Of a stretch of 64,000 bases of DNA, positions 8,303 to 58,999 are shown piece after piece. The first letter of the stretch is position 1. Each line of letters begins with the position of its first letter. Both the position numbers and the translations under genes were made by a program. Source of the DNA: a virus (lineage: Duplodnaviria; Caudoviricetes); the IMG/VR virus record IMGVR_UViG_3300033405_000003; one strand, given 5' to 3'. Below the pieces are notes generated by a model that saw nothing but the letters and a program-made list of their open reading frames with translations, was not told the DNA's origin and did not search any database.

Positions 8303-8638
8303 ATGCACAACCTCAGCATGGCGCAAGCGCTCTCGATCTGGACCGCGTACCACGGCAAGAACGCTTTCGGCGGCGACACCGCCGAGATCTACATCTACAA
8401 GCTCATGCCCTACGAGCCCCTCGTCGCGAGCGTCGTCGGGGTGCTCCACGAGAGCCCCACCGCCAGGGAGGCGTCAGCCTGGGCGTACGACCGGGCGAAC
8501 ACGAGCCTCCACGCGCTCCTCACGCACTTCTCGAAGACGCGCGACGCGCGCGTCGAGGTCGATGGCCACGAACTCGGCGAGTGGCTCAAGGGCGCGCGCT
8601 TCGACCACCGCGTCCGCGTGAGGGTCGTGCCGCGATGA
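8303..8638 (+). CDS. hypothetical protein
   Basis: TGATG-coupled ORF. Confidence 0.65.
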   Translation: MHNLSMAQALSIWTAYHGKNAFGGDTAEIYIYKLMPYEPLVASVVGVLHESPTAREASAWAYDRANTSLHALLTHFSKTRDARVEVDGHELGEWLKGARFDHRVRVRVVPR

Positions 8639-8942
8639 GCGTGTACTTTTACGCCGTCTGCGACGTCTGCCGCCTCGTCTGCCCGTCGACGACGAGCCAC
8701 GGCGGCGAGTGCGCCGCCGGCGAGGGACTCATTCACCCGTTCATCGCCAGCCACGTCTACTGCCGGAGCAGTCTCTCGCCCTCCCGCGCGCGGCTCCCGG
8801 GCGACGGGTTCCCCTCGTCCGTCCGAATCGTCGACGAGAGTTCGTGGGAGCGCGAGCAGGCCGTCACGGAGAAGGACGGCTGGCGCATGGTGCGCGCCCT
8901 CGCGGACACGGAGCAGCGCGAACCCCGGCCCTGGGAGGCGTG

Positions 8943-9665
8943 ATGACGACGAGAGTGAACGAAGAAGACGCGATCGACCAGTTGATCCTCGAGACCGAGG
9001 ACTACCTCGGCCGGGTGCTCGCGCCGGGCAGCGCGACCCTCGATCTCCTCCGGAGGCTAGCCGCTGGCACGCGCATCCTCGTGAACAAGCTCTCCGAGAG
9101 CGAGGCGCTCATCCGGGAGGCGCGCATCGCCTGCCCGCTCTGCCGCGGCAAGGGTTACTGGAGCACCGACGTCTACAAGAACCGGCCGTGCCACTGCAAG
9201 GCGGGCGAGATGTTCGCGTCGCTCACGAAGCCTGCGGTCCGCGTCGGCGTCGCGGTCATCCTCCGGCGCGGCGACCGCGTGCTCATGGGCCTCAGGAAGG
9301 GCAGCCACGGCGCCGGCACGTGGTCCTTCCCCGGCGGCCACCTCGAGCCGGGCGAGACCGTCTTCGAGTGCGCGTCGCGCGAGCTGCGCGAGGAGACCGG
9401 CATCGACGTCGAGCCGAGGCGCTTCCGCAAGTCGACGTATACGAACGACGTCTTTCAGGCCGAGGGCAAGCACTACGTCACCGTCTACGTCGAGGGGTGG
9501 CGGCCCCCGTGGCCCGGCGACCCCGCCCTCGACCCGACCCCCGAGCCGAAGATCCTCGAGCCCGAGAAATGCGCGGAGTGGCGCTGGCAGGGCTCGCCGC
9601 CCTCGCCGCTCTTTCTCCCGATCGAGAACCTCCTCAAGGACGGCTTCCGCGTCTGGCCGCCTTGA
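8943..9665 (+). CDS. Nudix hydrolase (MutT/NUDT15-like) with N-terminal Cys-rich extension
   Basis: Nudix box GGHLEPGETVFECASRELREETG; VGVAVIL; EPEKCAEWRW. Confidence 0.9.
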   Translation: MTTRVNEEDAIDQLILETEDYLGRVLAPGSATLDLLRRLAAGTRILVNKLSESEALIREARIACPLCRGKGYWSTDVYKNRPCHCKAGEMFASLTKPAVRVGVAVILRRGDRVLMGLRKGSHGAGTWSFPGGHLEPGETVFECASRELREETGIDVEPRRFRKSTYTNDVFQAEGKHYVTVYVEGWRPPWPGDPALDPTPEPKILEPEKCAEWRWQGSPPSPLFLPIENLLKDGFRVWPP

Positions 9666-9705
9666 CGCGAGCGTGACGGCAATCTAACGGTACTGAAGGG
9701 AACGC

Positions 9706-10884
9706 ATGAAGGAAGAGTTCTTCGCCCCCGAGAACGAGGTCCCCGGATCGCGGCGCGAGCACCTCTCGCCGTCGGGGCATTACAAGCTCGTCGTGTCGAG
9801 CTTCAGCACGAAGGCCGGGTCCTGGAACTACGCGCAGGGCCTGGTCCTCAGGCGCAGGCCTGACCCCGGCGGCGCCAAGCTGGAGATCAAACTCGTGGTC
9901 GACGAGCCCGTGTGGGACGTCGTCGCCACCGTCCAGCGCAACTACAGCGCGTTCCCGTTCCTCTTCGTCGAGGATCACCCGATGGGCGACTTCCTCGTCT
10001 GCGGCCACGACTACCAGGGGCAGACGGTCGTGTACCTTCGGACGGGCGCGCGCAAGGACGTGCTCTCGCCGGGCACCGAGGACGGGTTCGGCTTTTGCTG
10101 GTCCGAATACCGCTACGACCCGAGGTCCGAGATCCTCGTCGTGTGCGGGTGCCACTGGGCGTGCCCGTACGAGTTCCGCCTCTACGACTTCTCGGACCCG
10201 ATGGCCGGGTGGCCGGAGATCACGATCGAGGGCGACGACGGCTCGCCGCTCGGCGGCATCGGCATGTTCGAGGACGCGAGATGGCCGACGCTCGCGGAGG
10301 ACGGGACGATCCGCTTTTACCAGACCGGGGACGAGGGCGACGACGCGAACGGCAACGACCACGCGGCGCAGCTCCTGCCCGCGCACGCGACGAGCGACGC
10401 GGGCGTGCTCGCGCACACGACGTTCAGGCGGAAGGGGGCGACGCAGCTCGTCCCGCTCGGCGAATGGGTCTCCGACAAGGAGAAGCAGCACCGCGCGGCC
10501 CGCGAGGAGGCCGAGCGCAAGTTCGAGGCGTGGAGGGAGGAGTTCAAGAAGAGCGACCCGCTCTACCTCGTTTGTGAGCGGCTCGCGTCCGATCCCGCGC
10601 TGTCGCCCGAGGAGCACATGAGTCTCGGCTGGGTGTACGACGGATGGTGCCCTGACTACAGGTCCGAGGGCGAAAAGGAGCGGCGGGCGTGCCGGCGCAT
10701 CGTTCAGCGCCCGGGGGACAAGGGGCTCACCATCGTCCTCGAGTGGGCCGTCGACGCCGGGCCCATCAAGCTCGTGGTCTTCCGGGACGGCGACCACGCG
10801 CTCGACCAGTTCTTCGAGCACTCCGCGGCGGGCATGGAGGAGGCATTCGCCCGTGCGAAGGACCTCGTGAGGGGCGCGGCGTGA
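9706..10884 (+). CDS. hypothetical protein (392 aa)
   Basis: long ORF, RBS, codon bias. Confidence 0.75.
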   Translation: MKEEFFAPENEVPGSRREHLSPSGHYKLVVSSFSTKAGSWNYAQGLVLRRRPDPGGAKLEIKLVVDEPVWDVVATVQRNYSAFPFLFVEDHPMGDFLVCGHDYQGQTVVYLRTGARKDVLSPGTEDGFGFCWSEYRYDPRSEILVVCGCHWACPYEFRLYDFSDPMAGWPEITIEGDDGSPLGGIGMFEDARWPTLAEDGTIRFYQTGDEGDDANGNDHAAQLLPAHATSDAGVLAHTTFRRKGATQLVPLGEWVSDKEKQHRAAREEAERKFEAWREEFKKSDPLYLVCERLASDPALSPEEHMSLGWVYDGWCPDYRSEGEKERRACRRIVQRPGDKGLTIVLEWAVDAGPIKLVVFRDGDHALDQFFEHSAAGMEEAFARAKDLVRGAA

Positions 10885-11025
10885 CCTGGTTCTTGGACGC
10901 GAGGGAGCTGGAGCGCGCGATGCCGATCATGGCGTTCGCCCGCGACCCGCGGCGCCAGTACATCGTCTATCCTTTCCTCGGGTTCGCGAGGTGGCCGAGG
11001 GTGTTCTGGTGAGGGAGAAATACGC

Positions 11026-11640
11026 ATGAGCGCGCGAGAACCCAAGAACAAGCTCCAGGAGTGGATAAGCTCCCAGACCGTCTCGGACGAGATGCTCTGG
11101 AAGGGCGCGTTCGGCCACCAGATGTCGTTCATCCGCGACCGGCTCGTGCCGCTCATGGCCGCGGGTCTCGTCTACCAGGCGAGCAAGGAGATCGCCGACG
11201 TCATCTCGACGCACCGGAGCAAATCGATCGTCTTGCCGGTCGTGGAGGTCACGCGCAAGGACCTCGGCCTCCGCTTCACGATGCGCGAGAACTTCTACAA
11301 CTGGAAGCTCTCGGTGCTCTCCGAGAAGCCGATCGAGGCCGACTTCACGGGGCTCTTCCACACGACGCCGCCGATCGACAAGTCCTACACGGGCGACCCG
11401 CTCGCCGGCGTGTACTTCGAGGGGTTCCCGGGGGACCGCATCTTCCGGTACTACTCCGATGACAAGCGTAAGTTCTCGGCGGAGATCTGGGGCGACTATC
11501 CCATGTGGGCCGCGGTGCTGCTCATCATGCGCTCGGTCGGCGCGGTGAAACCGCACGCGTGGACCACGCGCGAGACCCACCAGAAGGAGATGGCGGACGA
11601 GCGGGCCCGCGAGAAGGCGTGGGAGGAGAGCGGCCCATGA
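11026..11640 (+). CDS. hypothetical protein
   Basis: GGGAG RBS, codon bias. Confidence 0.7.
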   Translation: MSAREPKNKLQEWISSQTVSDEMLWKGAFGHQMSFIRDRLVPLMAAGLVYQASKEIADVISTHRSKSIVLPVVEVTRKDLGLRFTMRENFYNWKLSVLSEKPIEADFTGLFHTTPPIDKSYTGDPLAGVYFEGFPGDRIFRYYSDDKRKFSAEIWGDYPMWAAVLLIMRSVGAVKPHAWTTRETHQKEMADERAREKAWEESGP

Positions 11641-11890
11641 ACGCGAAGATGAAGATCTCGGAGGGCACCCTCCGCCTCCAGAGCAGCATCTGCAGGGCCG
11701 CCGACCTGCCCAGGCTCGAGGAGGCCACGGTCACGGACCTCGAAGACTCGGCCGAGTCCCTCATCGAGTTGTGGAGCGACGGGAACGTCATCGGGCACTA
11801 CCTGATGGTCGTCAAGCGGCGCCCGAAGAAGCTCAGGTACCGCGAGCCGCTGCGCCTGCTCGCCGTCATCCGCAAGCACGGGCTAGAGCC

Positions 11891-25436: not shown

Positions 25437-25512
25437 GGTGGATGTAGCCAAGTGGTTAAGGCGCTGCGTTGTGGCCGCAGTATTCGCGAGTTCGATCCTC
25501 GTCATCCACCCC
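25437..25512 (+). tRNA. tRNA-His(GTG)
   Basis: cloverleaf, G-1, ctgcg-tt-GTG-gc-cgcag. Confidence 0.9.
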
Positions 25513-25571
25513 GTCGAAAAAAGTTCTTGCACGTTCCCCGAAACCATGTCCTAGTGACTGAAGACACTCCG

Positions 25572-25760
25572 ATGCACACCTCGATGCCGAAATCGCCCAT
25601 GCAGACCCGGAGGCCGCTGAGCCAATCAGCAGTGCTTTCAGGGTCGTGGTGCATTTTGTGCCCAGTGACAGCGCCCGGAGTCGATAGCCTTGCACGCGTT
25701 TATCCGGCCTCCCCCAGCGAACCGAAGTTCGCGACGCGCAATCAGGAGGCCGGTACCTAG
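25572..25760 (+). CDS. putative 62-aa attenuator leader peptide
   Basis: 40 distinct codons, all 20 aa; stop abuts antiterminator strand. Confidence 0.6.
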   Translation: MHTSMPKSPMQTRRPLSQSAVLSGSWCILCPVTAPGVDSLARVYPASPSEPKFATRNQEAGT

Positions 25761-25832
25761 AGGCGGTTCTTTCACTCGCGCAACAGCGCAGGAAGGGCCG
25801 CCTCGGAGACGAGAGCGGCCCTTCGGCATTTC
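25760..25832 (+). terminator. mutually exclusive antiterminator/terminator hairpins
   Basis: 25760-25773 pairs with 25791-25804; alternatively 25792-25801 pairs with 25815-25824; weak U tract. Confidence 0.65.
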
Positions 25833-25971
25833 AGGGTCCGAAAAATTCGAAGGAGTGCAGATCGCGCACTAGCGATCTGCCCAAGCGGCGACTGCCGATC
25901 ACAGGAGACGTGTGTCCGATGAACGCCATGGCTCGAGAACGATATCAAAGCTCCGAACTCCCATATCGCAT

Positions 25972-26057
25972 GGGGCGTGTTCTGAGCGGTAGTAGCTCTA
26001 GCCGGCTGTAACCCGGTGGCCTTTTGGCAAGTGGTGCAACTCCATCACGCCTCACCA
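25972..26057 (+). tRNA. tRNA-Tyr(GTA), atypical
   Basis: ccgg-ct-GTA-ac-ccgg, V arm, 3' ACCA; T loop TGCAACT. Confidence 0.8.
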
Positions 26058-26121
26058 AGACAAGGACGAAGACGATGAAAACGAAGACCGCGCCCGTGAA
26101 GGCGGGCCCAAAAGAAAGCGA

Positions 26122-26193
26122 GGGACGTTAGCACCAAGGTGGTGCAGCCGCCTTTTAAGCGGCAAGGGCTCGGTCCGATTCCGAGGCGTCCCA
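26122..26193 (+). tRNA. tRNA-Lys(TTT)
   Basis: gccgc-ct-TTT-aa-gcggc. Confidence 0.85.
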
Positions 26194-26212
26194 CTCAGCC
26201 ACGAGGCTGAAC

Positions 26213-26286
26213 GGGTCTGTAGCTCGAGTGGTCGAGCAACCGCCTCTTAAGCGGAAGGTGAGGGATCGTTCCCCTCCAGGCCCACC
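26213..26286 (+). tRNA. tRNA-Lys(CTT)
   Basis: ccgc-ct-CTT-aa-gcgg. Confidence 0.85.
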
Positions 26287-26314
26287 CCGGAAGGTTTTTC
26301 TCAGATTCAGATAT

Positions 26315-26387
26315 TCGGGTCTCGTCTAACGGTAAGACAGCGGTCTCTGGAACCGCGAATGAGGGTTCAACTCCTTCGACCCGAACC
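26315..26387 (+). tRNA. tRNA-Gln(CTG)
   Basis: gcggt-ct-CTG-ga-accgc. Confidence 0.9.
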
Positions 26388-26516
26388 GGCGCTCACTCGA
26401 GCGCTTGGCCCTTGAAAATTTGGAAGGACGTGACGCGCGCAGCCGGCTCTCGGGTGCGCGGGCGGTCTCTCCTGTTCGTCAAGAAACACGGGGAGGGCCA
26501 TGTGGCCCTCCCATAT

Positions 26517-26598
26517 TCCTGGGTGTTCCGAATGGTAAGGTGCCCGGCTGTTAACCGGTGGTCGAAAGACGCTGTAGGTTCGATTCCTACCCCAGGAG
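26517..26598 (+). tRNA. tRNA-Asn(GTT) with long variable arm
   Basis: ccgg-ct-GTT-aa-ccgg; V arm gtc-gaaa-gac; G73. Confidence 0.8.
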
Positions 26599-26607
26599 CT
26601 TGTGTTT

Positions 26608-26679
26608 GCCGACGTGACGAGGCGTCACCGCTCCCTTGTAGCGAGCGAGGCTAGGGTTCGAGATCCCTTCGTCGGCTCC
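26608..26679 (+). tRNA. tRNA-Thr(TGT), degenerate
   Basis: gccgacg/cgtcggc, short D arm, ct-TGT-ag loop with C.C mismatch. Confidence 0.65.
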
Positions 26680-26681
26680 GT

Positions 26682-26756
26682 GCTGGTGTAGCTCCAAGGT
26701 GGAGCACCTGTTTCGTAATCAGGAGGGCTGCGGTCCGATTCCGCTCACCAGCTCCA
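26682..26756 (+). tRNA. tRNA-Thr(CGT)
   Basis: tt-CGT-aa loop, 3' TCCA. Confidence 0.85.
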
Positions 26757-26757
26757 C

Positions 26758-26829
26758 GCGCCCTTCGTCTAGTGGTCTGGATCCTCGACTTTCAATCGAG
26801 AGGTGAGGGATCGTTCCCCTCAGGGCGCA
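26758..26829 (+). tRNA. tRNA-Glu(TTC)
   Basis: ctcga-ct-TTC-aa-tcgag. Confidence 0.85.
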
Positions 26830-26856
26830 CAAATACATATCTACTCAAATACTCAT

Positions 26857-26930
26857 GTCCCTATCGTCTAGATGGCCAAGGACGGTACCCTCTCAAGGTA
26901 CAAACCGGGGTTCGAATCCCCGTGGGGACG
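26857..26930 (+). tRNA. tRNA-Glu(CTC)
   Basis: gtacc-ct-CTC-aa-ggtac, canonical T loop. Confidence 0.9.
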
Positions 26931-26935
26931 CAAAC

Positions 26936-27011
26936 GGGCAGAGAGCTAGTCTAGTGATAGCGCCGGTCTGAAGAGCCGGATAACTCGGTGCGATCCCGAG
27001 TCTGCCCACCA
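26936..27011 (+). tRNA. tRNA-Phe(GAA)
   Basis: ccggt-ct-GAA-ga-gccgg, 3' ACCA. Confidence 0.85.
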
Positions 27012-27012
27012 T

Positions 27013-27084
27013 CAGGGTGTCGCACAATGGTAGTGCCCGAGCTTTGGGTGCTCGTACTTGCCAGTTCGAGTCTGGCCACCCTGA
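27013..27084 (+). tRNA. tRNA-Pro(TGG)
   Basis: cgagc-tt-TGG-gt-gctcg. Confidence 0.88.
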
Positions 27085-27103
27085 CTAGTGACTAGTGAGA
27101 TAT

Positions 27104-27187
27104 GCCACCGTGGCGGAATAGCAGACGCGCTAGCTTGAGGTGCTAGTGTCCTCGTGACGTGAGAGTGCAAGTCTCTCCGGTGGTACC
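27104..27187 (+). tRNA. tRNA-Leu(GAG)
   Basis: ctagc-tt-GAG-gt-gctag, long V arm. Confidence 0.9.
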
Positions 27188-27191
27188 GTTC

Positions 27192-27268
27192 GCAGAGCTA
27201 GGCTAACCGGTAAAGCTAGTGCGTCCTAAAAACGCGCGACTCGGGGTTCGAATCCCCGGCTCTGCACC
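27192..27268 (+). tRNA. tRNA-Leu(TAA), short V loop
   Basis: tgcgt-cc-TAA-aa-acgcg (C33). Confidence 0.8.
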
Positions 27269-27271
27269 CGA

Positions 27272-27348
27272 GTGGACGTAAGTCTAATTGGTAAAGCTAC
27301 CATACTCAAAATATGGTGTTTGTGAGTCCGAGTCTCACCGTCCACACC
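27272..27348 (+). tRNA. tRNA-Leu(CAA), short V loop
   Basis: ccata-ct-CAA-aa-tatgg. Confidence 0.85.
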
Positions 27349-27362
27349 GTCAATAACGCACT

Positions 27363-27435
27363 GTCCTTGTGGCTCAATGGATAAAGCAGCGCTTTCCTAA
27401 AGCGAAGATTGCCCGTTCGAATCGGGCCAAGGACG
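27363..27435 (+). tRNA. tRNA-Arg(CCT)
   Basis: cgct-tt-CCT-aa-agcg, A20. Confidence 0.88.
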
Positions 27436-27458
27436 CGGAGTAGAGAAAGGGAGATCCC

Positions 27459-27653
27459 ATGAAGTTCGCGCACCCGGGCGGGCTCGACGTGGCCTACGTC
27501 GTGGTCGCTCGAGGAGAAGTCCACGCCACCGCCGACACGCTCGACGCGGCTCAGAAGATCGTGGACATGAAGAGGTCCGGCCGCGACGGGAGGAAAGGCG
27601 GCAACCCGACCGCTGGAGCGAAGCTCGAGTGGTCGATCGAGAAGGTTGAATGA
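27459..27653 (+). CDS. small hypothetical protein inside tRNA array
   Basis: AAAGGGAG RBS, high GC3. Confidence 0.6.
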   Translation: MKFAHPGGLDVAYVVVARGEVHATADTLDAAQKIVDMKRSGRDGRKGGNPTAGAKLEWSIEKVE

Positions 27654-27658
27654 TTCAA

Positions 27659-27733
27659 GGCTCGTGATGCGATAAGTATCGCAGCTCCTCTGTCTAAGGA
27701 GTGAAACGGGGGCGGTACCCGTACGAGCCGCCA
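27659..27733 (+). tRNA. tRNA-Asp(GTC), degenerate T loop
   Basis: ctcct-ct-GTC-ta-aggag, 3' GCCA. Confidence 0.75.
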
Positions 27734-27734
27734 T

Positions 27735-27805
27735 AGGAGTCAGGTCACGGTGACCGGCGAGCCTCCAAAACTCGCGTCGAGTGGGTTCGACCCCCACGGC
27801 TCCTG
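27735..27805 (+). tRNA. tRNA-Trp(CCA)
   Basis: ct-CCA-aa loop, short D arm. Confidence 0.8.
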
Positions 27806-27811
27806 CTGATG

Positions 27812-27906
27812 ACCTGTCGGGTCGCTATCGTTTGGTTACCCTGCCTTGTACGCAGGGCGCCCTTCCCGGGCGCCTAACCTCCAAGCGGTGTCCTTCATCC
27901 GACGGT
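27812..27906 (+). ncRNA. Y-RNA-like RNA
   Basis: TGTCGGGTCG...GGTTACC...CTTCATCCGAC, same motif as the four RNAs after Ro60. Confidence 0.75.
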
Positions 27907-27928
27907 TCACATCATGACAGGAGGGATC

Positions 27929-28048
27929 ATGTTCACCACGGCGCGCGACGAGGACGGCACCTTCTACTTGTTCTGGCGCGGCGCGCTGATCTACAAGCGC
28001 TGGCCGAGCGGCGCGTCTCGCGTCTTCTACTCACGCACTCAACTTTGA
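27929..28048 (+). CDS. 39-aa peptide MFTTARDEDGTFYLFWRGALIYKRWPSGASRVFYSRTQL
   Basis: AGGAGG RBS directly after Y-RNA-like gene. Confidence 0.6.
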   Translation: MFTTARDEDGTFYLFWRGALIYKRWPSGASRVFYSRTQL

Positions 28049-28055
28049 TGTCCAC

Positions 28056-28127
28056 GGGCTGATAGCTCAATTGGGAGAGCGCCGGCTTCGCATGTCGGAG
28101 ATCCGGGTTCGAAACCCGGTCGGTCCA
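28056..28127 (+). tRNA. tRNA-Ala(CGC)
   Basis: tt-CGC-at loop, G3.U70. Confidence 0.9.
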
Positions 28128-28142
28128 CTGTCTGAAATTCGA

Positions 28143-28213
28143 GGGGCTGTCGTCTAATGGGAGGACGCCGCGCTGGCAGCGCGGCAATAAGAGTTCAATT
28201 CTCTTCAGCTCCA
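28143..28213 (+). tRNA. tRNA-Ala(GGC)
   Basis: ccgcg-ct-GGC-ag-cgcgg, G3.U70. Confidence 0.9.
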
Positions 28214-28227
28214 CTGCTCACGTATCT

Positions 28228-28303
28228 GGGTCCTTAGCTCCAACTGGGAGAGCGCCTGTTTTGCAAGCAGGAGGTTGTCGGTTCGATCCCGACAGGATCC
28301 ACC
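28228..28303 (+). tRNA. tRNA-Ala(TGC)
   Basis: tt-TGC-aa loop, G3.U70. Confidence 0.9.
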
Positions 28304-28462
28304 GGGTGATCGTCACTCGTAGGACGCATACACGCATAATAACAGGTTCGATTCCTGTATTCCCCGCCCTTATGGGGAATATGCCAATGGTCGGCAGTTA
28401 GCCCTCGAAGCTAATCAAACCAACCCGAAAGGGTTGTGCACCCCAAACTCGACGACCACCCG
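28303..28462 (+). ncRNA. circularly permuted tRNA-Arg(TCG)-like RNA inside a closing stem
   Basis: order T arm, acceptor 3' strand+GCC, linker, acceptor 5' strand, D arm, anticodon arm; outer stem cgggtgatcgtc/gacgaccacccg. Confidence 0.7.
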
Positions 28463-28466
28463 ATTC

Positions 28467-28538
28467 GCTGGCGTAGCTCCAAGGCGGAGCGCCTCATTGG
28501 TATTGAGGAGGGCTGGAGTTCGATTCTCCTCGTCAGCT
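28467..28538 (+). tRNA. tRNA-Thr(GGT)
   Basis: cctca-tt-GGT-at-tgagg. Confidence 0.88.
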
Positions 28539-28540
28539 CT

Positions 28541-28641
28541 GGCGCAGCCGCTCCCAGGAGCTAGGCGGACCTGACCGTGCACGGGCGGGCGAGCTGAAAA
28601 GCACTCTGCGGAGGGTGGGTGAGAGGCCCACGGCGCCGCCA
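28541..28641 (+). ncRNA. unassigned structured tRNA-like RNA ending GCCA
   Basis: ggcgc/gcgcc-G-CCA, T-like arm gtggg-tgagagg-cccac, four internal hairpins. Confidence 0.5.
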
Positions 28642-28645
28642 ACGC

Positions 28646-28719
28646 GCGGGTGAAAGACTGCAGTGGTCGCCAGGCCTTCCAAGCCTTGGAGCGTCGGTGC
28701 GAATCCGACCATCCGCTCC
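28646..28719 (+). tRNA. tRNA-Gly(TCC)
   Basis: aggc-ct-TCC-aa-gcct, U73. Confidence 0.8.
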
Positions 28720-28731
28720 GACGAAGAATTC

Positions 28732-28802
28732 GCGGGTGTAGCTCGAGGGTCGAGCAACGCGTTCCCAACGCGAAGGTGGGGTTTCGATTACCCTCACCCG
28801 CT
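28732..28802 (+). tRNA. tRNA-Gly(CCC)
   Basis: cgcg-tt-CCC-aa-cgcg. Confidence 0.85.
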
Positions 28803-28816
28803 CAAATATCAAATAT

Positions 28817-28891
28817 GCGGATAAGGCCGACTAGTGAGGCACTTCGTTGCCAACGAAGTTCAGACGGGTGCGATCCCCGTTATCCGCTCCA
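28817..28891 (+). tRNA. tRNA-Gly(GCC)
   Basis: cttcg-tt-GCC-aa-cgaag, 3' TCCA. Confidence 0.85.
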
Positions 28892-28892
28892 T

Positions 28893-28964
28893 GAGCCCGT
28901 TCGCTAGCGCGGCAGCCGGTCTGCAAAACCGACTTCGAGGGTGCAATCCCCTCCGGGCTCTCCA
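28893..28964 (+). tRNA. tRNA-Cys(GCA)
   Basis: cggt-ct-GCA-aa-accg, 3' TCCA. Confidence 0.8.
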
Positions 28965-28965
28965 T

Positions 28966-29036
28966 GCTCCCGTTCTGATGGATCAGACAGCGGTTTTCTA
29001 GTCCGCATGCTGCGTGTTCGAATCACGCCGGGAGCA
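28966..29036 (+). tRNA. tRNA-Arg(TCT)
   Basis: gcggt-tt-TCT-ag-tccgc, canonical T loop. Confidence 0.75.
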
Positions 29037-29163
29037 CGAAGTGGGAGTGGCGATGTCACGCGTACGGTCCACACCGGATTGAAACCCTGGTCTTCGTGGT
29101 GACTCACCGAGCGCGCGGCAGGACCAGGGATCGCTAGTCACGGCCCCAGCTCCTTCTTCATTT

Positions 29164-29238
29164 CTCCTCGTGGCCCAATGGACAAGGCACCGGTCTACGG
29201 AACCGTGAGATGCAGGTTCGACCCCTGCCGAGGAGGCC
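29164..29238 (+). tRNA. tRNA-Arg(ACG)
   Basis: cggt-ct-ACG-ga-accg. Confidence 0.9.
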
Positions 29239-29317
29239 GTGGGCCGTGGGGGTAACCAATCCTCCGATCGTGAGAAACGACCCCCTGCACGTCGGGCGGC
29301 GAAGAGGACGTGCACCT

Positions 29318-29390
29318 CCCCTCGTCCATGCGGATCATGGCACGACCCTCCGATGGTCGTTGGCTGCGTTCGAGTCGCAGCGAGGGGGCC
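29318..29390 (+). tRNA. tRNA-Arg(CCG)
   Basis: cgacc-ct-CCG-at-ggtcg. Confidence 0.8.
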
Positions 29391-29459
29391 GCGGCAACTT
29401 GGAGTGCGTCGGCTCTCATAAGGCTGAACGCGACGGTTCGATCCCGTCTGCCGCGACCA
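29390..29459 (+). tRNA. tRNA-Met(CAT), truncated D arm
   Basis: ct-CAT-aa loop, 3' ACCA, D arm reduced to act-tgg-agt. Confidence 0.75.
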
Positions 29460-29479
29460 CGTCAGACCACGTCGACCGC

Positions 29480-29557
29480 GCCAACGTAGCCCAACTTGGT
29501 AGGAGGCACCTGACTCAGGATCAGGGCAGTGTGGGTTCGAATCCCTCCGTTGGTACC
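29480..29557 (+). tRNA. tRNA-Leu(CAG), short V loop
   Basis: cctga-ct-CAG-ga-tcagg. Confidence 0.85.
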
Positions 29558-29582
29558 GATTCTTTCTTTTTGATAATTGTGA

Positions 29583-29653
29583 TGGGGTATGCCGAAGCGG
29601 CAATCGAGCCTTTGAAGCTCGAAACGGCGGAGCGTTACCGTCTACCCCAACCA
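29583..29653 (+). tRNA. tRNA-Gln(TTG), degenerate
   Basis: cgagc-ct-TTG-aa-gctcg, short D arm, T loop AGCGTTA. Confidence 0.75.
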
Positions 29654-29681
29654 GCGCGGACGTGGTACATGTCTGCACCAT

Positions 29682-29757
29682 CAGAGTGTCGTACAATCTG
29701 GTAGTACACGTGCTTCGGGTGCACGTTATCCCGGTTCAAATCCGGGCACTCTGACCA
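29682..29757 (+). tRNA. tRNA-Pro(CGG)
   Basis: cgtgc-tt-CGG-gt-gcacg, 3' ACCA. Confidence 0.9.
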
Positions 29758-29760
29758 CTC

Positions 29761-29834
29761 GGGTCCATCGTCCAACACGTAGGATGTCTCCCCCACACGG
29801 AGAAGATGACCGTGCGAATCGGTCTGGACCTACC
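29761..29834 (+). tRNA. tRNA-Val(CAC)
   Basis: tctcc-cc-CAC-ac-ggaga. Confidence 0.8.
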
Positions 29835-29839
29835 GCCAC

Positions 29840-29915
29840 GGGAGGTGAGTGAGCTAGTGAACACGCTACCTCGACAAGGTAGTCTCGATGGGTGCGATCC
29901 CCATACCTCCTACCA
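29840..29915 (+). tRNA. tRNA-Val(GAC)
   Basis: ctacc-tc-GAC-aa-ggtag, 3' ACCA. Confidence 0.8.
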
Positions 29916-29917
29916 GC

Positions 29918-29991
29918 GGACACGTCTCTGGGAGTTACCAGAAGCGCGTCTTATAAGCGCGTAAAGAGCGGCGCACCTCCGCACGTGTCCA
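29918..29991 (+). tRNA. tRNA-Ile(TAT), degenerate T arm
   Basis: cgcgt-ct-TAT-aa-gcgcg; ggacacg/cgtgtcc. Confidence 0.7.
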
Positions 29992-30042
29992 CGGATCTTG
30001 GTCTGTTATCTTCACTTCACACGTCACTGCGAACTACAACTC

Positions 30043-30118
30043 GGGCGCATCGTCCAACGGTTTAGGACGGCTCTCTGATAAGGAGCAAATCAAAGTTCAA
30101 CTCTTTGTGCGCCTACCA
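30043..30118 (+). tRNA. tRNA-Ile(GAT)
   Basis: gctct-ct-GAT-aa-ggagc, 3' ACCA. Confidence 0.9.
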
Positions 30119-30137
30119 GCCCCGAAACGGATTTGCC

Positions 30138-30671
30138 ATGTCCCCCACGACCACCCTCATCCTCAACCACTACATGCTCCCGCACAGGGTCAGCACCTGG
30201 CAGGAGGCCATCACGGAGCTTTTCACCGACAAGGTCGAGATCCTCCGATGGTACGACGACGTCGTTGTCTACCACAACGCCGAGCGCGGCATCACGATGA
30301 AGATGCCGGCCGTCGCGCGCCTGCTCAAGCCAGTCGCGACGCACAAGAAGGGCGTGAAGTTCTCGAGGGTCAACGTCATGGCCCGTGACAACTTCGTCTG
30401 CCAGTACTGCGGCAACAAGTTCGCGATGTCCGAACTCAACTACGACCACGTCCTGCCCCGCGTGCAGGGCGGCAAAACGGTCTGGGAGAACATCGTCACG
30501 AGCTGCTACGACTGCAACGACAAGAAGGGCGCCCGCACCCCCGAGCAGGCGAAGATGAAGCTCATTCGCAAGCCCTTCAAGCCCAAGACCCTCCCCCTCG
30601 CGCAGCCCGTCCTCGCGATGAGGGACATCCCTCTCGAGTGGGAACCCTGGACGGGTAGCGTCGCGGTGTAA
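30138..30671 (+). CDS. HNH endonuclease
   Basis: FSRVNVMARDNFVCQYCG, DHVLPR, WENIVTSCYDCNDKKG. Confidence 0.92.
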   Translation: MSPTTTLILNHYMLPHRVSTWQEAITELFTDKVEILRWYDDVVVYHNAERGITMKMPAVARLLKPVATHKKGVKFSRVNVMARDNFVCQYCGNKFAMSELNYDHVLPRVQGGKTVWENIVTSCYDCNDKKGARTPEQAKMKLIRKPFKPKTLPLAQPVLAMRDIPLEWEPWTGSVAV

Positions 30672-30708
30672 AAACCGCGACGCGCGCCGCGCAGAACACG
30701 CGGCGTCT

Positions 30709-30782
30709 CGGAGTGTGGCTCAGTCTGGTAGAGCGCTCGGCTGGGGGCCGAGAGATCACAGGTTCAAATCCTGTCACTCCGA
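30709..30782 (+). tRNA. tRNA-Pro(GGG)
   Basis: ctcgg-ct-GGG-gg-ccgag, canonical. Confidence 0.92.
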
Positions 30783-35298: not shown

Positions 35299-35574
35299 TC
35301 ACGTTTGCTCCGTGTGATGCCCGCAGTGCGGACAGGTACCGGGCGTGGGGAAGCGACCGGCGAGGACGTCGTCCACGCCAACCGACGCGAAACGCGCGAT
35401 GCGGACGGCCAGGCTCGCGCTGGCCACCTTGCGCGAGCATGCGATCTGTCCGAGCGTCGTCGCCTTGAAGTGCAAAGCCTTTGCAACTGGCTCCCACCCG
35501 CCGCAACGCGCCCGCAGGTAGCGGAGCGCGGTGCGGACGTTGGTCTGCTCGGCAGGCGTGAGGTCGGCGCTCAT
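35299..35574 (-). CDS. XRE-like HTH protein with CPHC, coupled to transposase
   Basis: ATGA overlap with transposase stop; similar to 12867/13250. Confidence 0.75.
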   Translation of the reverse strand: MSADLTPAEQTNVRTALRYLRARCGGWEPVAKALHFKATTLGQIACSRKVASASLAVRIARFASVGVDDVLAGRFPTPGTCPHCGHHTEQT

Positions 35575-37739: not shown

Positions 37740-38513
37740 ATGCAGGGCGTCGCCATGGCCGATCTAGGTGCGCCCGCCGACCTTTACCGCGAGATCAAGA
37801 CCGGGGGCCGGTGGGCGCGTCGCTCGGTCGCCGTCGGCGACCGCGTTGGCCAATCGATCGTCGTTCGAGACATCGGTCTGGTCGGCAAGTGCCGGCGCTT
37901 CGAGATCACGTGCCAGTTCTGCGGGGTCATTCAGATCCGCAGCGCGGGGCAGATCAACGCGGCGCTCCGCTACGAGCGTTCGATCACGTGCCCCCGGTGC
38001 CTGAGCGAAGGGCGTCTGGCCAAATGCCTCGACATCCAGGACAAGCGCCTCGAGCGCGTGCTCGGCGGTGGCCCGGTGTACACGCTCTACGAAGAGGACG
38101 CCATCTGCGACGGCGTCTTGAGCGACCTCGAAGCGGAGTTCGGACCGTTGACCCACGACGACATGCCGATCTCGGAGATGACCATCGCTGCTGGATGGCC
38201 GTACAGCGCGAACGTCCCCGCGAAGGACGCCGTCGCCGAGTACATCGGGGAGACCGAAGCCGAACGCGCCTGGCGCCACGAGATGAACAGCATCCTCTTC
38301 GCCAAGCGCGACCTCGAGTACCGCGCGGCCCTCCGCCGCGCGTACGAGCGCGACCAGGATAAGTTCACGGAGCGCGCTCACGAAGCAGCGAAGGCGCTCG
38401 AGTCGTTCGTTCTGGCGGGCGGGCAACTGAGCGTCACCCAGCCTCGCGATCCGTGCCCATGCAGCAGCGGGCTCGCGTTCGCCGACTGCCACGGTTCCGA
38501 CGACCAGTCTTAG
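37740..38513 (+). CDS. protein with C-terminal SEC-C motif
   Basis: PRDPCPCSSGLAFADCHG. Confidence 0.7.
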   Translation: MQGVAMADLGAPADLYREIKTGGRWARRSVAVGDRVGQSIVVRDIGLVGKCRRFEITCQFCGVIQIRSAGQINAALRYERSITCPRCLSEGRLAKCLDIQDKRLERVLGGGPVYTLYEEDAICDGVLSDLEAEFGPLTHDDMPISEMTIAAGWPYSANVPAKDAVAEYIGETEAERAWRHEMNSILFAKRDLEYRAALRRAYERDQDKFTERAHEAAKALESFVLAGGQLSVTQPRDPCPCSSGLAFADCHGSDDQS

Positions 38514-53306: not shown

Positions 53307-55088
53307 ATGGCGATCAGAATCAAGCGTGGGCCCGTCGTCCTCATCGCGATCCTCGGTGCAGTGGGACTCTTCTTCGGCATCCGGGCCGTCGTCGGCAAGA
53401 TGCCCGGACATGAGGCCGAGGTCCCGAAGACGGCGGAGCTGCCGACGCTGAAAGAGAACACCGTGCAGAGCGCGTCGGTCCCGAAGACGCCGCTCCCGGG
53501 CACCGTCGCTACTGGCAAGGGTACGGACGTGCGCGCGATGGTGTGGGCGTGGAACGCGCAGATGGGCCTGCTCTACGCGAACGGCGGCGCCGACACGACG
53601 CAGGGCTCGCTCATGGCTGCACGCAACGTGAACCTCCACTTCACCCGCGAGGACGACACCAGCAAGATGGCCGCTCAGCTCATGGCCCTCGCGAAGAACG
53701 TCGCCAAGAACATCGAGGGGACGGACGGCGTGCACTTCATCACGCTCATGGGCGACGGCACTCCGAGCTGGTTCGCTGGGCTCAACGCGGACCTGAAGAA
53801 GATCTGCGCCGACTGCACCGCCGAGACCGTCGGCGTCCTCGGCTACTCGCGCGGCGAGGACAAGTTCATGGGCCCCGCCGAGTGGAAGGACAGCCCGAAG
53901 AAGGCCCAGGGCGCGCTCATCGCCGGCGTGATCCGCGACGGCGACTGGAACGTCGCCATGAAATGGGCCGGCGACAACGGCATCCTCAATAACCCCGACG
54001 AGACGACGTACGACCCCGACGCGCTCAACTGGGTGAACGTCGACAACTTTCTCGAGGCCCCGAAGAAGTACATCCTCGGCGTCTGCGAGGACCGTCCCGT
54101 CGTGCACCAGGGGCGCCGCACGGGCCAGACCAAGAACGTGTGCGTGAACGCCGTCGTCACGTGGACGCCCGGCGACGTCAACGTCGCGCAGCAGAAGGGC
54201 GGCCTCCAGTCGATCGTCTCGACCAAGGAGTACCGGAGCCAGATGCCGTGCGCGCTCATCGGCATCAAGAAGTGGGATCGGCTCCACCGCGACGTCGTCG
54301 AGGGCATCCTCCAGGCGTCCTTCGACGCGGCCGACCAGGTCCGCGCGTACCCCGACGCGCTCGCGCGCGCCGGCGAGATCAGCGCCGCCGTCTACAAGGA
54401 ATCCGACGGCCCGTATTGGGTTCGCTACTTCAAGGGCGAGACCGAGAAAGACAAGCAGGGGCTCATGGTGCCGCTCGGCGGCTCGTCGGTCTCGGACCTC
54501 GCCGACAACGCGCAGGTCTTCGGCCTCGCGCCCGGGTCCGTGAACCTCTTCGCCGCCACGTACACGACCTTCGGCGACATCGCCGTCCAGCAGTACCCGA
54601 AGATCGTGGGGAGCTACCCGCCCGTCTCGGACGTGCTCGACACGTCCTACGTCGAGGACCTCCTGAAGAAGGCTCCCGTCGCGACCACGTCCGCGGACGT
54701 CGCCACGTTCAAGAGCGGCGCTGCCATCACGAGCGTCGTCTCGAAGAAGAGCTGGAGCATCACGTTCCAGACCGGCAGCGCCGCGTTCTCCCCCGACGCG
54801 CAGAAGACCCTCGACGCGCTCGAGAAGGACCTCGTCATCACCGACCTCGTCATCGAGATCGACGGCCACACCGACAACACGGGCGACGCGTCCGGCAACA
54901 AGGCGCTCTCGCAGAGCCGCGCGAACGCGGTCAAGGACTGGCTCATGAAGCAGTCGACGACGAACTTCCCCGCCGACCGCTTCACCGTCAAGGCGTTCGG
55001 GCAGGACAAGCCCGTCGCGACGAACGACACGGAAGCCGGGCGCAGCAAGAACCGCCGCGTCGACGTCATCATGGGCACGGCGGAGTGA
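53307..55088 (+). CDS. solute-binding (NMT1/SsuA-like) + OmpA-like C-terminal domain protein
   Basis: N-terminal anchor; GYSRGED; [24 protein letters not shown]. Confidence 0.85.
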
Positions 55089-55848: not shown

Positions 55849-56688
55849 ATGCGTTCATCAAACAAGTCCATCAATCTGAAGCTGCCCTCCATCGAGGCAC
55901 ATAGTGCCTGCTACGCGCTCATCGGTACCGGTCCGATGCTGGTCCACGCATTCGGCCAGAAATCGTTCACCGAGATGCTCGAAAAGATGGTCGGCTGTCG
56001 CCAGGACGGTACGCCTCTCGACTCTGAACGCGAACCCAAGGATCTCGAGCGCGAGTTCGTGGACGCCCACGCATTCAACGAGCGGGGCGAGGAGGTGATC
56101 CCTTGTCGATGGATCAAGGCCGGTATGCTCACGGCCGTCGCCGCGAGTCGAAAGCAACTCAACGCTTCGGCGATGCGGCGCGCGGTTCGCGTGACGGGCT
56201 TCACCTCTCCCATCCTCGACCCAAAGGGTCGCAAGGCCGCCACAGCCGAACTTCAGCACGACGTCGTCCGCGTCGGCTCTTGGTCGAACCGCACTCCCGA
56301 CGTCCGCGCACGGCCGCGCTACGATGAGTGGATGATCGAAATCGTCGTCAAGGTGATCGTCGATCAGGTTCCCATGGAACACGTGGCCTGGGCGCTCTCC
56401 GCCATGGGCGAGCTGGTCGGTCTCGGCGACTGGCGAACGGAAAAGAACGGTGAGTACGGCTTTTTCAAGATCAAGGGCCTTCACGTAAACGAAACCGATC
56501 GCATCATGAAGGCTTGCTCTTCACCCGAGCGTAGGCTCGTCATCCCGCCCGCACTCATGACGGCAATGAAGACCAAGGGCATTACCCAAGCTCAGGTGCA
56601 CGAAGAGATGGAGCGCATCAAGGGTGGTGGCAAGAACAAAAGCAAGAGCCGCTCGAACGGTGCTCAGTCCCACGGCGAAGTGTCATGA
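55849..56688 (+). CDS. stand-alone RAMP/Cas7-like RNA-binding protein
   Basis: AAAGGA RBS; LIGTGPMLVH, IPCRWIKAGM, VRARPRYDEW, Gly-rich loop VGLGDWRTEKNGEYGFF. Confidence 0.75.
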   Translation: MRSSNKSINLKLPSIEAHSACYALIGTGPMLVHAFGQKSFTEMLEKMVGCRQDGTPLDSEREPKDLEREFVDAHAFNERGEEVIPCRWIKAGMLTAVAASRKQLNASAMRRAVRVTGFTSPILDPKGRKAATAELQHDVVRVGSWSNRTPDVRARPRYDEWMIEIVVKVIVDQVPMEHVAWALSAMGELVGLGDWRTEKNGEYGFFKIKGLHVNETDRIMKACSSPERRLVIPPALMTAMKTKGITQAQVHEEMERIKGGGKNKSKSRSNGAQSHGEVS

Positions 56689-57275
56689 CGTCGACAAAGA
56701 AAGGGGCTCGCGTCAACAAAGTGCGGGCCCCTAGGATCACTGCGAGGGGCAAATACACGGTCGAAGAGATCCGTGAGGCCTGGATCATCTTCACCGAGAT
56801 GACTGGCGGCGGAGATTGGCGAAACTCGCTCACACCCGAGTTTGTGCTCGAACAGGTGCTCGCCGACAAGTCACACCCGTTGAGGCGTTACCTCGAACGT
56901 GACGTCGAGAAGGCTGCTCATCAACATTGGATCAGCCAAATCGGCCATCTGATGAATGAGGTCCGCATCTCAGTCATCGTCACTCAAGAACCTGGCAAGG
57001 TCATCCGCGTGCAGACGCGTTCGCTCGTGCACATGCCGAGGACCGCGACTCGCGACGCGGGGCGCCGCCCTCTCCGGCAGATTCGCAAAACGAAAGAGGA
57101 TCGTGACGCTCTGGCAAGGATTCGCGCGCAGTATCTACGATCCTGGGTCGGAGCGACCGAGGCACAGCTCGCCGCCATCGATGCCAACCAGTCAGCGCTT
57201 GTGGCGTTGCTTTCAGATGTGAAGCGAGCGCTCAGGCGCTTCGACGACTCTCTCAACATCGATGCTGCTGAATAA
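56685..57275 (+). CDS. helical partner protein of the RAMP-like gene
   Basis: ATGA-coupled; LTPEFVLEQVLADKSHPLRRYLERDVEKAA. Confidence 0.75.
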   Translation: MTSTKKGARVNKVRAPRITARGKYTVEEIREAWIIFTEMTGGGDWRNSLTPEFVLEQVLADKSHPLRRYLERDVEKAAHQHWISQIGHLMNEVRISVIVTQEPGKVIRVQTRSLVHMPRTATRDAGRRPLRQIRKTKEDRDALARIRAQYLRSWVGATEAQLAAIDANQSALVALLSDVKRALRRFDDSLNIDAAE

Positions 57276-57284
57276 CGTAAGAAT

Positions 57285-58030
57285 GGACTGTAATAGGGGA
57301 AAGGAAGGGACAGGACTGGACGGTATAGGAGTGGAACGGCCGGTAACGGAGCCGACAGGAGAGTAATGGATCGACAGGAGAGTAATGGATCGGCCGGTAA
57401 ATGGAACTGATTGGAAGCGAGCGGAACGGACGTGGCGGGATCGGTGTGGAGCGGATCGGCCGGTAATGGATTGGACGGGACATGAACGTATTGGAGTCGA
57501 AGTGACAGGACTGGCCGGAAAAACGGAATGTATCGTAGGGGAACCGAACGGAACAGAATCGAACGGACCGGCCGGAAATGGAATCGATGGGAATGGAGTG
57601 ACGAGGAAAGGATCGTAAGGGATAGGACAGGACCGGAACGAGAATTGGTCGGAAAATGGATAGGAGCGAGCGGAGGCGTGAGGGAACGAAGCGGCCGGTC
57701 AAAAGGGAGCGGATGGAGAGGAATGGAGAGGAAAGTACAGGAACGGTTGATAATGGAACGAAGACGACCGGACTGGCCGGAAAAGCGGAATGTATCTGGA
57801 GAGGATAGGATAGGAAAGAAGGGAACAGGATCGGCCGGATAGCGGAATCGAGAGGACAGGCCAGTACAGGGAACGGACCCGATAGGAGGCGAGTCGACTG
57901 GAGTGGAAACGGAAGGGCCGGAAGAGGAATGAAATGAATGGACTGGAGCGGCCGGAGAACAGGAACGGAATCGATCGGATAGGAAGCGATCGTATCGGAC
58001 GGGAGTGGAAAGGCCGGACAGTGGAAAGAA
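57285..58030 (+). repeat. GGA-NN pentamer array in ~12 units delimited by GGCCGG (putative guide-RNA array)
   Basis: 5-nt periodicity; GGCCGG at 57338, 57392, 57458, 57513, 57570, 57693, 57775, 57833, 57916, 57950, 58012 and GGTCGG at 57647. Confidence 0.9.
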
Positions 58031-58219: not shown

Positions 58220-58999
58220 ATGGCCTTCCGCGACGCCTGGATCCCCAACGGTCGCGTCTCGAAGCGCGTGCACTTCATTCTCGGTGCTGGCACCGTTGCG
58301 CTCTTCTTCATCGCGTGGGGCCTGCGACCGACGTTCATGCCCGGACCTATGGACGTTCTTCGCGCGTACCCGCGGCTCGCGGACCAGGGACTCGCTCAGC
58401 AGCTCTTCGTGAGCCTCACGACAAATTTCCAGGCCATCGGTCTTTCGTGTCTGCTCACGATTCCGCTCGCGTACCTCACGGTGCTCCCAGCCGCGAGGCC
58501 CTTCGTGCGCACGCTCTCGAAGATGCGTTTTTTGGGACTCACGGGCCTCACGGTCGCCTTCACGCTCGCCTTTGGCGGCGGCCACGCGCTCAAGGTCGCG
58601 CTCCTCGTGTTCGGCATGGGCGTCTTTCTCGTGACGAGCCTCTACGACGTCGTCGAGGCCATCCCGAAGGAAGAGTTCGACCACGCGCGCACGCTCCGCA
58701 TGTCGCCGTGGGGCGCCGTCGTCGAGATCGTCGTGCTCGGCCATCTCGACGCGGTGCTCGACGCCGTCAGGCAGAACGCGGCGATGGGCTGGGTGATGCT
58801 CACGCTCGTCGAGGGTCTCGTCCGCTTCGAGGGCGGCCTCGGCTCGATGATGCTCGCCGAGGACAAACACGTCGCGCTCGATGCCGTCTTCGCGATCCAG
58901 CTCCTTGTCCTCGTCGTCGGCGTGCTCCAGGATCTCGCGCTCTCGTGGCTTCGGCGCATCCTCTGCCCGTATGCGAGCCTCACGCTGGAGCGACAATGA
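58220..58999 (+). CDS. ABC transporter permease (SsuC/TauC-like)
   Basis: multiple TM helices; IPKEEFDHARTLRMS EAA-like loop. Confidence 0.85.
   Translation: MAFRDAWIPNGRVSKRVHFILGAGTVALFFIAWGLRPTFMPGPMDVLRAYPRLADQGLAQQLFVSLTTNFQAIGLSCLLTIPLAYLTVLPAARPFVRTLSKMRFLGLTGLTVAFTLAFGGGHALKVALLVFGMGVFLVTSLYDVVEAIPKEEFDHARTLRMSPWGAVVEIVVLGHLDAVLDAVRQNAAMGWVMLTLVEGLVRFEGGLGSMMLAEDKHVALDAVFAIQLLVLVVGVLQDLALSWLRRILCPYASLTLERQ

Follow-up and report, generated by a model that had tools for sequence, protein, structure and literature searches.

A probable VIPR guide-RNA array with purine-type repeats in a large tRNA-rich phage, and a candidate target class for one of its guides

VIPR (Viral Interference Programmable Repeat) is an RNA-guided DNA-silencing system of phages which was first described in 2026 (10.64898/2026.04.26.720920, 10.64898/2026.04.26.720927, 10.64898/2026.10.15.759431). 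It consists of a phage minimal RAMP protein, Vipr, made up of an RRM core, a G-loop and a thumb, a vap gene (accessory genes vap1-6 have been published) and vrRNAs that have 9-16 GGY-NN units and a 3' tail (10.64898/2026.04.26.720920). The constant triplet is GGY or, in some VIPR types, "a related consensus" (10.64898/2026.04.26.720920). The NN dinucleotides pair with double-stranded DNA and each unit skips one target base; this 1-nt skip rule was shown experimentally, and the skipped base is overwhelmingly the wobble position of a codon. Targets are rival phages, satellites and prophages, mostly the latter two, and guides at promoter-proximal sites repress effectively (10.64898/2026.04.26.720920). 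The same preprint also mentions seven published types, tail-less or "staggered" arrays and the consensuses NNNGG, YNNNG and NNNNG (10.64898/2026.04.26.720920).

The structure solved by cryo-EM has one Vipr protomer per repeat, with the GGY buried and the R-loop growing from the 3' end (10.64898/2026.04.26.720927; PDB 36pp). The third-base pocket of the Vipr protein of Escherichia phage SUSP1 is reported to exclude purines (10.64898/2026.04.26.720927). Codon-periodic targeting stops mutational escape, as was found for the VIPR of SUSP1 acting on the F5 satellite, in which the target is the excision recombinase, known and tested (10.64898/2026.10.15.759431).

We have analysed a 64-kb stretch of viral DNA, called the window below, which carries a block of 5-nt repeats downstream of two overlapping genes. 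We are confident that this block encodes the guide RNAs (vrRNAs) of a VIPR system in a large tRNA-rich phage of ~219 kb. The window has 28 tRNA genes, in two clusters on the + strand (25438-30782 and 44872-45193), and the contig recorded for the Vipr protein is 218,816 bp long; both features indicate a jumbo phage well supplied with tRNAs. The VIPR cassette and a few small genes interrupt an ABC-transporter-like module consisting of a substrate-binding/OmpA fusion, a permease and an ATPase (53307-55088, 58220-58999 and 60030-60896), and this interruption suggests that the cassette was inserted as a mobile unit. The family of the OmpA-fusion protein is made up mostly of viral clusters in the protein atlas. 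The coordinates of the features are collected in Table 1.

Table 1. Features of the VIPR locus, and sites and genes that bear on its guides (window coordinates unless a locus is named)
Feature	Position	Strand	Remarks
vipr gene	55849..56688	+	Cas7-like RAMP protein, 279 aa (P0005)
Longer ORF of vipr	from GTG 55792	+	P0001
Candidate vap (vipr-accessory) gene	56685..57275	+	196 aa (P0002); start overlaps vipr stop
Putative vrRNA guide array	57298..58016	+	~142 pentamers, (G/C)GA or GTA + NN, ~12-14 units
GGCCGG punctuation	57338, 57392, 57458, 57513, 57570, 57693	+	exact copies, first 6 of 11
GGCCGG punctuation	57775, 57833, 57916, 57950, 58012	+	exact copies, last 5 of 11
Degenerate GGCCGG copies	GGTCGG 57647; GGCCAG 57859	+	in the array
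Tandem duplication	57353..57390	+	exact, period 19, 2.1 copies, 100% identity
Guide with candidate target class	57957..58011	+	11 NN antisense to codons [FL]-T-R-[DE]-[DE]-L-Y-[DE]-[IM]-V-W
Probable target of a relative's guide (L006 6643-6687)	35348..35373	-	in small gene 35299-35574 (-)
TREELYEMVW-family genes	L013 5642-6781; L009 4560-5741; L014 1482-2639		start TREELYEMVW...SDVGLAK.C...IP.P.RGYW

The first gene of the cassette codes for a Cas7-like protein which, judged from its sequence profile and its modelled fold, is a homologue of Vipr. A profile of 96 homologues matches PDB 36pp_D, "SUSP1 Vipr protein", with E 1.3e-17, and the single sequence does so with E 0.0045. The AF2 model has a pLDDT of 90.9, and its best Foldseek matches are Csm3/Cas7 chains, e.g. 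6ifn_E with E ~1e-6, the chain which the authors of the VIPR preprint used as query (10.64898/2026.04.26.720920). The family comprises 2227 clusters at E<=1e-3, and the protein matches phrog_4652 (function not annotated, E 4e-13); no Pfam family was found for it or for its 196-aa partner. Its C-terminal region is ~70 aa longer than that of SUSP1 Vipr. The residues making the G contacts in SUSP1, H17, R138, D177, W178 and R179, are here H33, R155, D194, W195 and R196, of which R155 and R196 are invariant across the 96 homologues. The homology by profile and the G contacts are thus common to this protein and the type II VIPR of SUSP1 and of a Pseudomonas fulva prophage. The third-base pocket, E71, M72, C173 and V175 in SUSP1, is here R87, W88, V190 and L192, a replacement which is compatible with A as the third constant base. 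A code of a single residue, W88 for A at the third base, was considered and rejected: W88 accompanies A both in this clade and in a distant relative (L021), but another (L023) combines W88 with GGT-NN. W88 and L192 together fit 6 of 6 cases; six are too few.

The second gene is our candidate for vap. It is kept beside vipr or the array in about four to five relatives, including L003, L004, L006 and L020, and its product matches phrog_15946 (function not annotated, E 4e-5). Searches of Pfam, NCBIfam and PADLOC gave no family, and tblastn found nothing similar in phages. The AF2 model is weak (pLDDT 62) and largely helical, with no recognisable DNA-binding or nuclease domain, and the protein differs from the partner in SUSP1/P. 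fulva VIPR in that neither a WH nor an HTH domain is detectable.

The array starts 23 nt past the stop of this gene. A register-aware parse gave 142 pentamers in an unbroken row from 57298 to 58016, with an exact 2-nt spacer in 131 of the 142 units and all 16 dinucleotides in use. The constant triplets are GGA (70), CGA (16), GTA (14), GGC (10, the punctuation described below) and GAA (9). The self-identity of the array is 0.47 at lag 5 and 0.38-0.42 at lags 10-30, compared with 0.19-0.33 at lags which are not multiples of 5, and GGA occurs 87 times in 793 nt at the array, where the window as a whole averages 4 per 200 nt. The + strand is 72% purine between the upstream gene stop (57275) and a small ORF (58068). 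This periodicity is far beyond chance. The first-pass annotation had seen the periodic block, which is real, and had bounded it at 57398-58011; the block reaches further 5' than that. No second period-5 block of such kind was found on either strand of the 64-kb window, an ORF check of the block gave no reading frame across the whole array, the Rfam search of the window returned tRNAs and no family for the array, and blastn found nothing like the array in phage genomes. Since no promoter-like site was found in the interval between vipr and the array, the array is probably co-transcribed with vipr.

The copies of GGCCGG, each with (A/T)AAA-like bases after it, split the array into ~12-14 guides of ~8-13 pentamers each. 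When 51 copies from this phage and three relatives were compared, the GGA register held strictly 5' of GGCCGG and more loosely 3' of it, and we therefore take GGCCGG to be the 3' end of each guide. This is the place at which the published vrRNAs carry their tail (10.64898/2026.04.26.720920). Each repeat tract is followed by GGCCGG and an A-rich spacer only, with no structured 3' tail or pseudoknot visible; by RNA folding the palindromic GGCCGG copies can pair with one another (z -3.1) and there is otherwise little local pairing. The 19-nt tandem duplication disrupts the 5-nt register once. Duplicated guides were also found inside the arrays of the relatives L003 and L006, and the arrays seem to grow through internal duplication.

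The linkage of vipr and array recurs in nine other loci. The close relatives from metagenomes, L003, L004, L006 and L020 (53-87% identity), have the same cassette with GGA-NN units and GGCCGG. Distant Vipr homologues with 24% identity are found in the Gordonia phages UmaThurman and ODay, in which GGC/GGT-NN arrays (L001 4611-4950 and L002 4664-4880) come immediately after these homologues, gp39 and gp19. In UmaThurman the annotation gives the array as a gene for a hypothetical protein, gp40; it is probably a mis-annotated vrRNA array. GGY-NN arrays occur in two more distant family members, L022 and L023. The GGT-NN array of L023 (260-470) lies upstream of the Vipr homologue P0122 and ends in a strong hairpin (ATAGGGGGATATATAACCTATCCCCCTAT); it is thus tailed, unlike the array of the window. 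In L021 a CGA-NN array (3672-4215) with the mark CGCAGTA(A/T)(A/T) follows a distant Vipr homologue (P0043, 223 aa). The constant triplet thus varies among relatives which have the linked gene, i.e., the linkage of gene and array is conserved while the triplet changes. P0043 has N at the place of H17 of SUSP1, the first-base contact, and the first constant base of its array is C; this one case hints at a possible protein-RNA recognition code. The 29.7-kb contig L020 holds GGA-NN arrays at 7231-7431, 8370-9830 and 10490-11890, a vap homologue downstream of an array (9986-10468) and a terminator-like hairpin after vipr. It also has another period-5 array, of CGY-NN with an A/T-rich tail (AACGTTCTAATTTTCAAAAC-like), at 2211-2601, 3161-3441 and 3861-4401, possibly a second VIPR type in one phage. 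No Vipr-related loci were found in the viral contigs.

With the VIPR of SUSP1 and P. fulva the locus has in common a phage-borne two-gene operon, an array whose 5-nt units have two variable positions each, guides of about 9-13 such units and one skipped target base at the wobble position. It differs in that the third constant base is A and not a pyrimidine, that the guides are ~50-60 nt and not ~100 nt long, and that they are separated by GGCCGG and a few A, with no structured 3' tail (pseudoknot) of the SUSP1-clade kind visible. Another difference is that the array is a single 0.7-kb block 3' of both genes. The constant triplet GGA/CGA/GTA is unlike GGY, but as a "related consensus" is allowed in some types this makes the locus a variant and does not exclude it. 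The "staggered" or alternative-consensus VIPR resemble the locus in that their guides adjoin, each one's end being the mark for the next to begin, and in that their constant part is other than GGY. With the Class 1 CRISPR backbone (Csm3/Cmr4/Cas7) the common features are the fold, one protomer per RNA segment and a thumb which flips bases periodically. The period is however different, 5 nt with three buried guide bases and one skipped target base in VIPR, 6 nt with one flipped base on each strand in Class 1 CRISPR, and the locus is without CRISPR repeats, spacers, other cas genes or acquisition genes. CRISPR-Cas was rejected as an identity for the locus: neither TRF nor the repeat parse gave CRISPR-type direct repeats, and the neighbours are the ABC-transporter module and phage genes of unknown function.

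The defining features of VIPR which can be assessed in silico were found at the locus, and it is on these that we place it in VIPR. The kind of system is already known and the locus reveals no new kind. The first-pass annotation had proposed, from the letters of the array, that each unit specifies a gapped NNx target, that the ignored base is the third of a codon and that the targets may be rival mobile elements and host genes. This is the published 1-nt skip rule of VIPR, and since the locus is VIPR by protein homology and fold, the core of that proposal is supported.

By analogy with SUSP1 and P. fulva, the vipr-vap-array operon would be transcribed and the array cut into guides of ~50-60 nt at or near GGCCGG, a processing site which we infer from the same analogy. 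One Vipr protomer would then bind each pentamer, and the resulting helical filament would bury the constant triplet and present the two variable bases. The NN dinucleotides would pair with double-stranded DNA with every third target base flipped out, and transcription of the target would be blocked. Because the skipped base is the codon wobble, such a guide would read a peptide motif and not one DNA sequence, and synonymous changes would give no escape.

The guide at 57957-58011 is the one for which a target class can be proposed. Its NN are CA AC AT TC TA AG TC TC CG GT AA, the reverse complement of which, TTnACnCGnGAnGAnCTnTAnGAnATnGTnTG, decodes to [FL]TR[DE][DE]L[Y*][DE][IM]V[CW*]. It was searched as the 10-NN version, with 20 specified bases gapped at skip 1, a pattern expected by chance to give ~1 match in the 596-Gb genome collection. 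The number of exact matches was 13, six in genomes and seven in metagenomes, with one contig in both. The first-pass annotation had read this unit as the N-terminal motif TREELYExVW of mobile-element proteins; the dinucleotides were reproduced, and 12 of the 13 matches are in-frame N-termini of homologous ORFs of one family, the skipped bases being third codon positions. All of these ORFs are hit in one frame, their skipped bases vary synonymously, and their starts read (L/V/F)TREELY(E/D)(M/I)VW...SDVGLAK.C....IP.P.RGYW. The comparison with other gap sizes and with shuffled NN, which the first-pass annotation had named as the way to check its reading, also came out in its favour: against the matched loci the guide scores 22 of 22 at skip 1, 15 of 22 at skips 0, 2 and 3, and the shuffle maximum is 18. 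With up to 3 mismatches allowed, 401 genomes of one phylum gave 8 matches, most of which decode to FTR.E(L/F)Y(E/D)(L/I)VW, and the reversed-pattern control gave 1.

The site falls near the promoter, at roughly codons 5-15. The TREELYEMVW family consists of proteins of ~380 aa for which no model exists in Pfam, NCBIfam or PADLOC. The neighbours of these genes are ResIII, AbiEii, Replic_Relax, an E1-like ThiF protein and a DUF3631/DUF3854 protein, so that the surroundings are variable and of mobile or defence type. The genomes with exact matches span several unrelated phyla, and they show what the guide recognises, not the home of the natural target. The other guides have no match in the loci carrying TREELYEMVW genes. 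We do not take a weak tblastn match of the family in the window itself (37812-37952, E 0.023) for a homologue. As in the attack of SUSP1 on F5, the periodicity of the guide would be the codon periodicity of the target gene, leaving no synonymous escape; the target here is a putative one, an uncharacterised family, where that of SUSP1 is a tested excision recombinase.

The remaining guides are less informative. A target class was found for one of ~12 guides, the 57957 unit being the only one with which the genome and metagenome collections were scanned. The guide at 57403-57457 (NN AC TT AG GC AC CG CG TC GT GC TC) gives in antisense [DE]AT[DE]RRVAL[KN]V, and the segment 57870-57915 (NN AC CC TA GG GT CT GT AA AA) gives [FL][FL]T[RS]TP[Y*]GV. 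The dinucleotides and the antisense decoding which the first-pass annotation had reported for three units, these two and that at 57957-58011, were reproduced, and the 1-nt register slip which it had assumed in the segment 57870-57915 proved needless. Its likening of the first of these to the VALK of Hanks kinases and of the second to the STPxG of terminases gained no support, each pattern having 0 exact matches in the viral contigs. The exact gapped patterns of units 57957 (in the 11-NN and the 10-NN version), 57403, 57575, 57715, 57463 and 57870 all gave 0 matches in these contigs. The core of the segment 57870-57915, ACnCCnTAnGGnGT, equals its own reverse complement, so that TPYGV is decoded in both directions; by our estimate, chance alone would place a palindrome of this sort in about one in ten arrays of this size.

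The guides of the window were also compared with the 64-kb window of the ~219-kb phage; the best match was 16 of 22, which is at shuffle level, and no self-target was found in these 64 kb. When 71 guides of five phages were compared with 205 kb of phage DNA there was one clear match and the rest were at shuffle level. A guide of L006 (6643-6687), the closest relative, matches the window at 35348-35373 when read at skip 1: 17 of its 18 NN bases agree, and skips 0, 2 and 3 give 13, 14 and 14. Read in this way, with the wobble positions skipped, the site falls in frame at the end of a gene for 91 aa (...VDDVLAGRFPTPG...). This gene has a C-terminal CxxC (CPHCG motif), has no family assignment and lies inside the end of a spurious 453-aa ORF. 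A score of 17 was reached by 2 of 3000 shuffles of the NN order, and when corrected for about 60 guides the match is suggestive, not decisive. The 1-nt skip rule thus describes two informative guides, this one and that at 57957-58011.

Two explanations of the array would do without guides altogether. GGA is the core of CsrA sites, and the 87 GGA triplets in 793 nt on one strand could make the array a sponge RNA which titrates a host regulator of the CsrA/RsmA type, as CsrB and RsmZ do, with the NN being uninformative. However, the 5-nt register is strict, the purine-rich array has little local pairing and does not present GGA in hairpin loops, and there is no CsrB or Rsm match in Rfam. The same linkage of gene and array is moreover found with GGY-NN and CGA-NN in other phages, the Gordonia phages included, and one NN string exactly encodes a conserved peptide motif, which a sponge does not need. 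We give this explanation hardly any chance. TRAP binds 11 triplets with 2-nt spacers, and a period of 5, blocks of ~11 units and GG every 5 nt would also suit a periodic RNA or single-strand element such as the site of a TRAP-like ring protein or a string of two-tier G-quadruplexes. The adjacent protein is however a homologue of Vipr/Cas7 and not a TRAP-like beta-sandwich, the array of L021 is CGA-NN without GG, and the target matches at skip 1 would be left unexplained. An element of this kind is very improbable, if marginally less so than the sponge.

A more serious objection accepts the VIPR array and takes the TREELYEMVW match for a coincidence or a relic, the real targets being rival phages only. 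The published targets of VIPR are mostly satellites and prophages, the genomes with exact matches are from unrelated phyla with no one plausible host among them, and six guide patterns of the window had 0 exact matches in viral contigs. A random 20-base pattern would however give ~1 match, and in unrelated places, whereas 12 of 13 matches fall here on the same codons of homologous genes; the reversed-pattern control of 1 against 8 points the same way, as does the company of the family, AbiEii, ResIII, Replic_Relax, E1-like and DUF3631/DUF3854 genes of mobile or defence type. We consider coincidence rather unlikely.

What is new here is a natural target class for a guide of the GGA type, the starts of TREELYEMVW-family genes, proposed from sequence matches. 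Put together, the observations lead us to a more specific reading, which we offer tentatively and consider less likely than not: a giant phage has a purine-type (GGA) variant of VIPR with tail-less guides delimited by GGCCGG, and at least one guide is directed against a peptide-level motif at the start of a widespread, uncharacterised family of bacterial genes in defence or mobile islands rather than against one rival phage.

The natural targets of VIPR have so far come from only a few enterobacterial and Pseudomonas systems. The locus would extend the range of VIPR to an uncultivated phage of ~219 kb, with an array in which A replaces the pyrimidine and no tail can be seen, and the relatives indicate that VIPR arrays get annotated as protein genes, as with gp40 of UmaThurman. 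If the specific reading is true, the GGA clade would show how the constant-base pocket of Vipr can be re-specified, and VIPR would act here as a broad-spectrum silencer of a gene carried by the host or by an element, possibly one for defence. The guide at 57957-58011 would be a case in which a peptide motif is recognised across synonymous variants, and the opening codons of these conserved genes, its concrete target class, may be an entry point to the function of the TREELYEMVW family.
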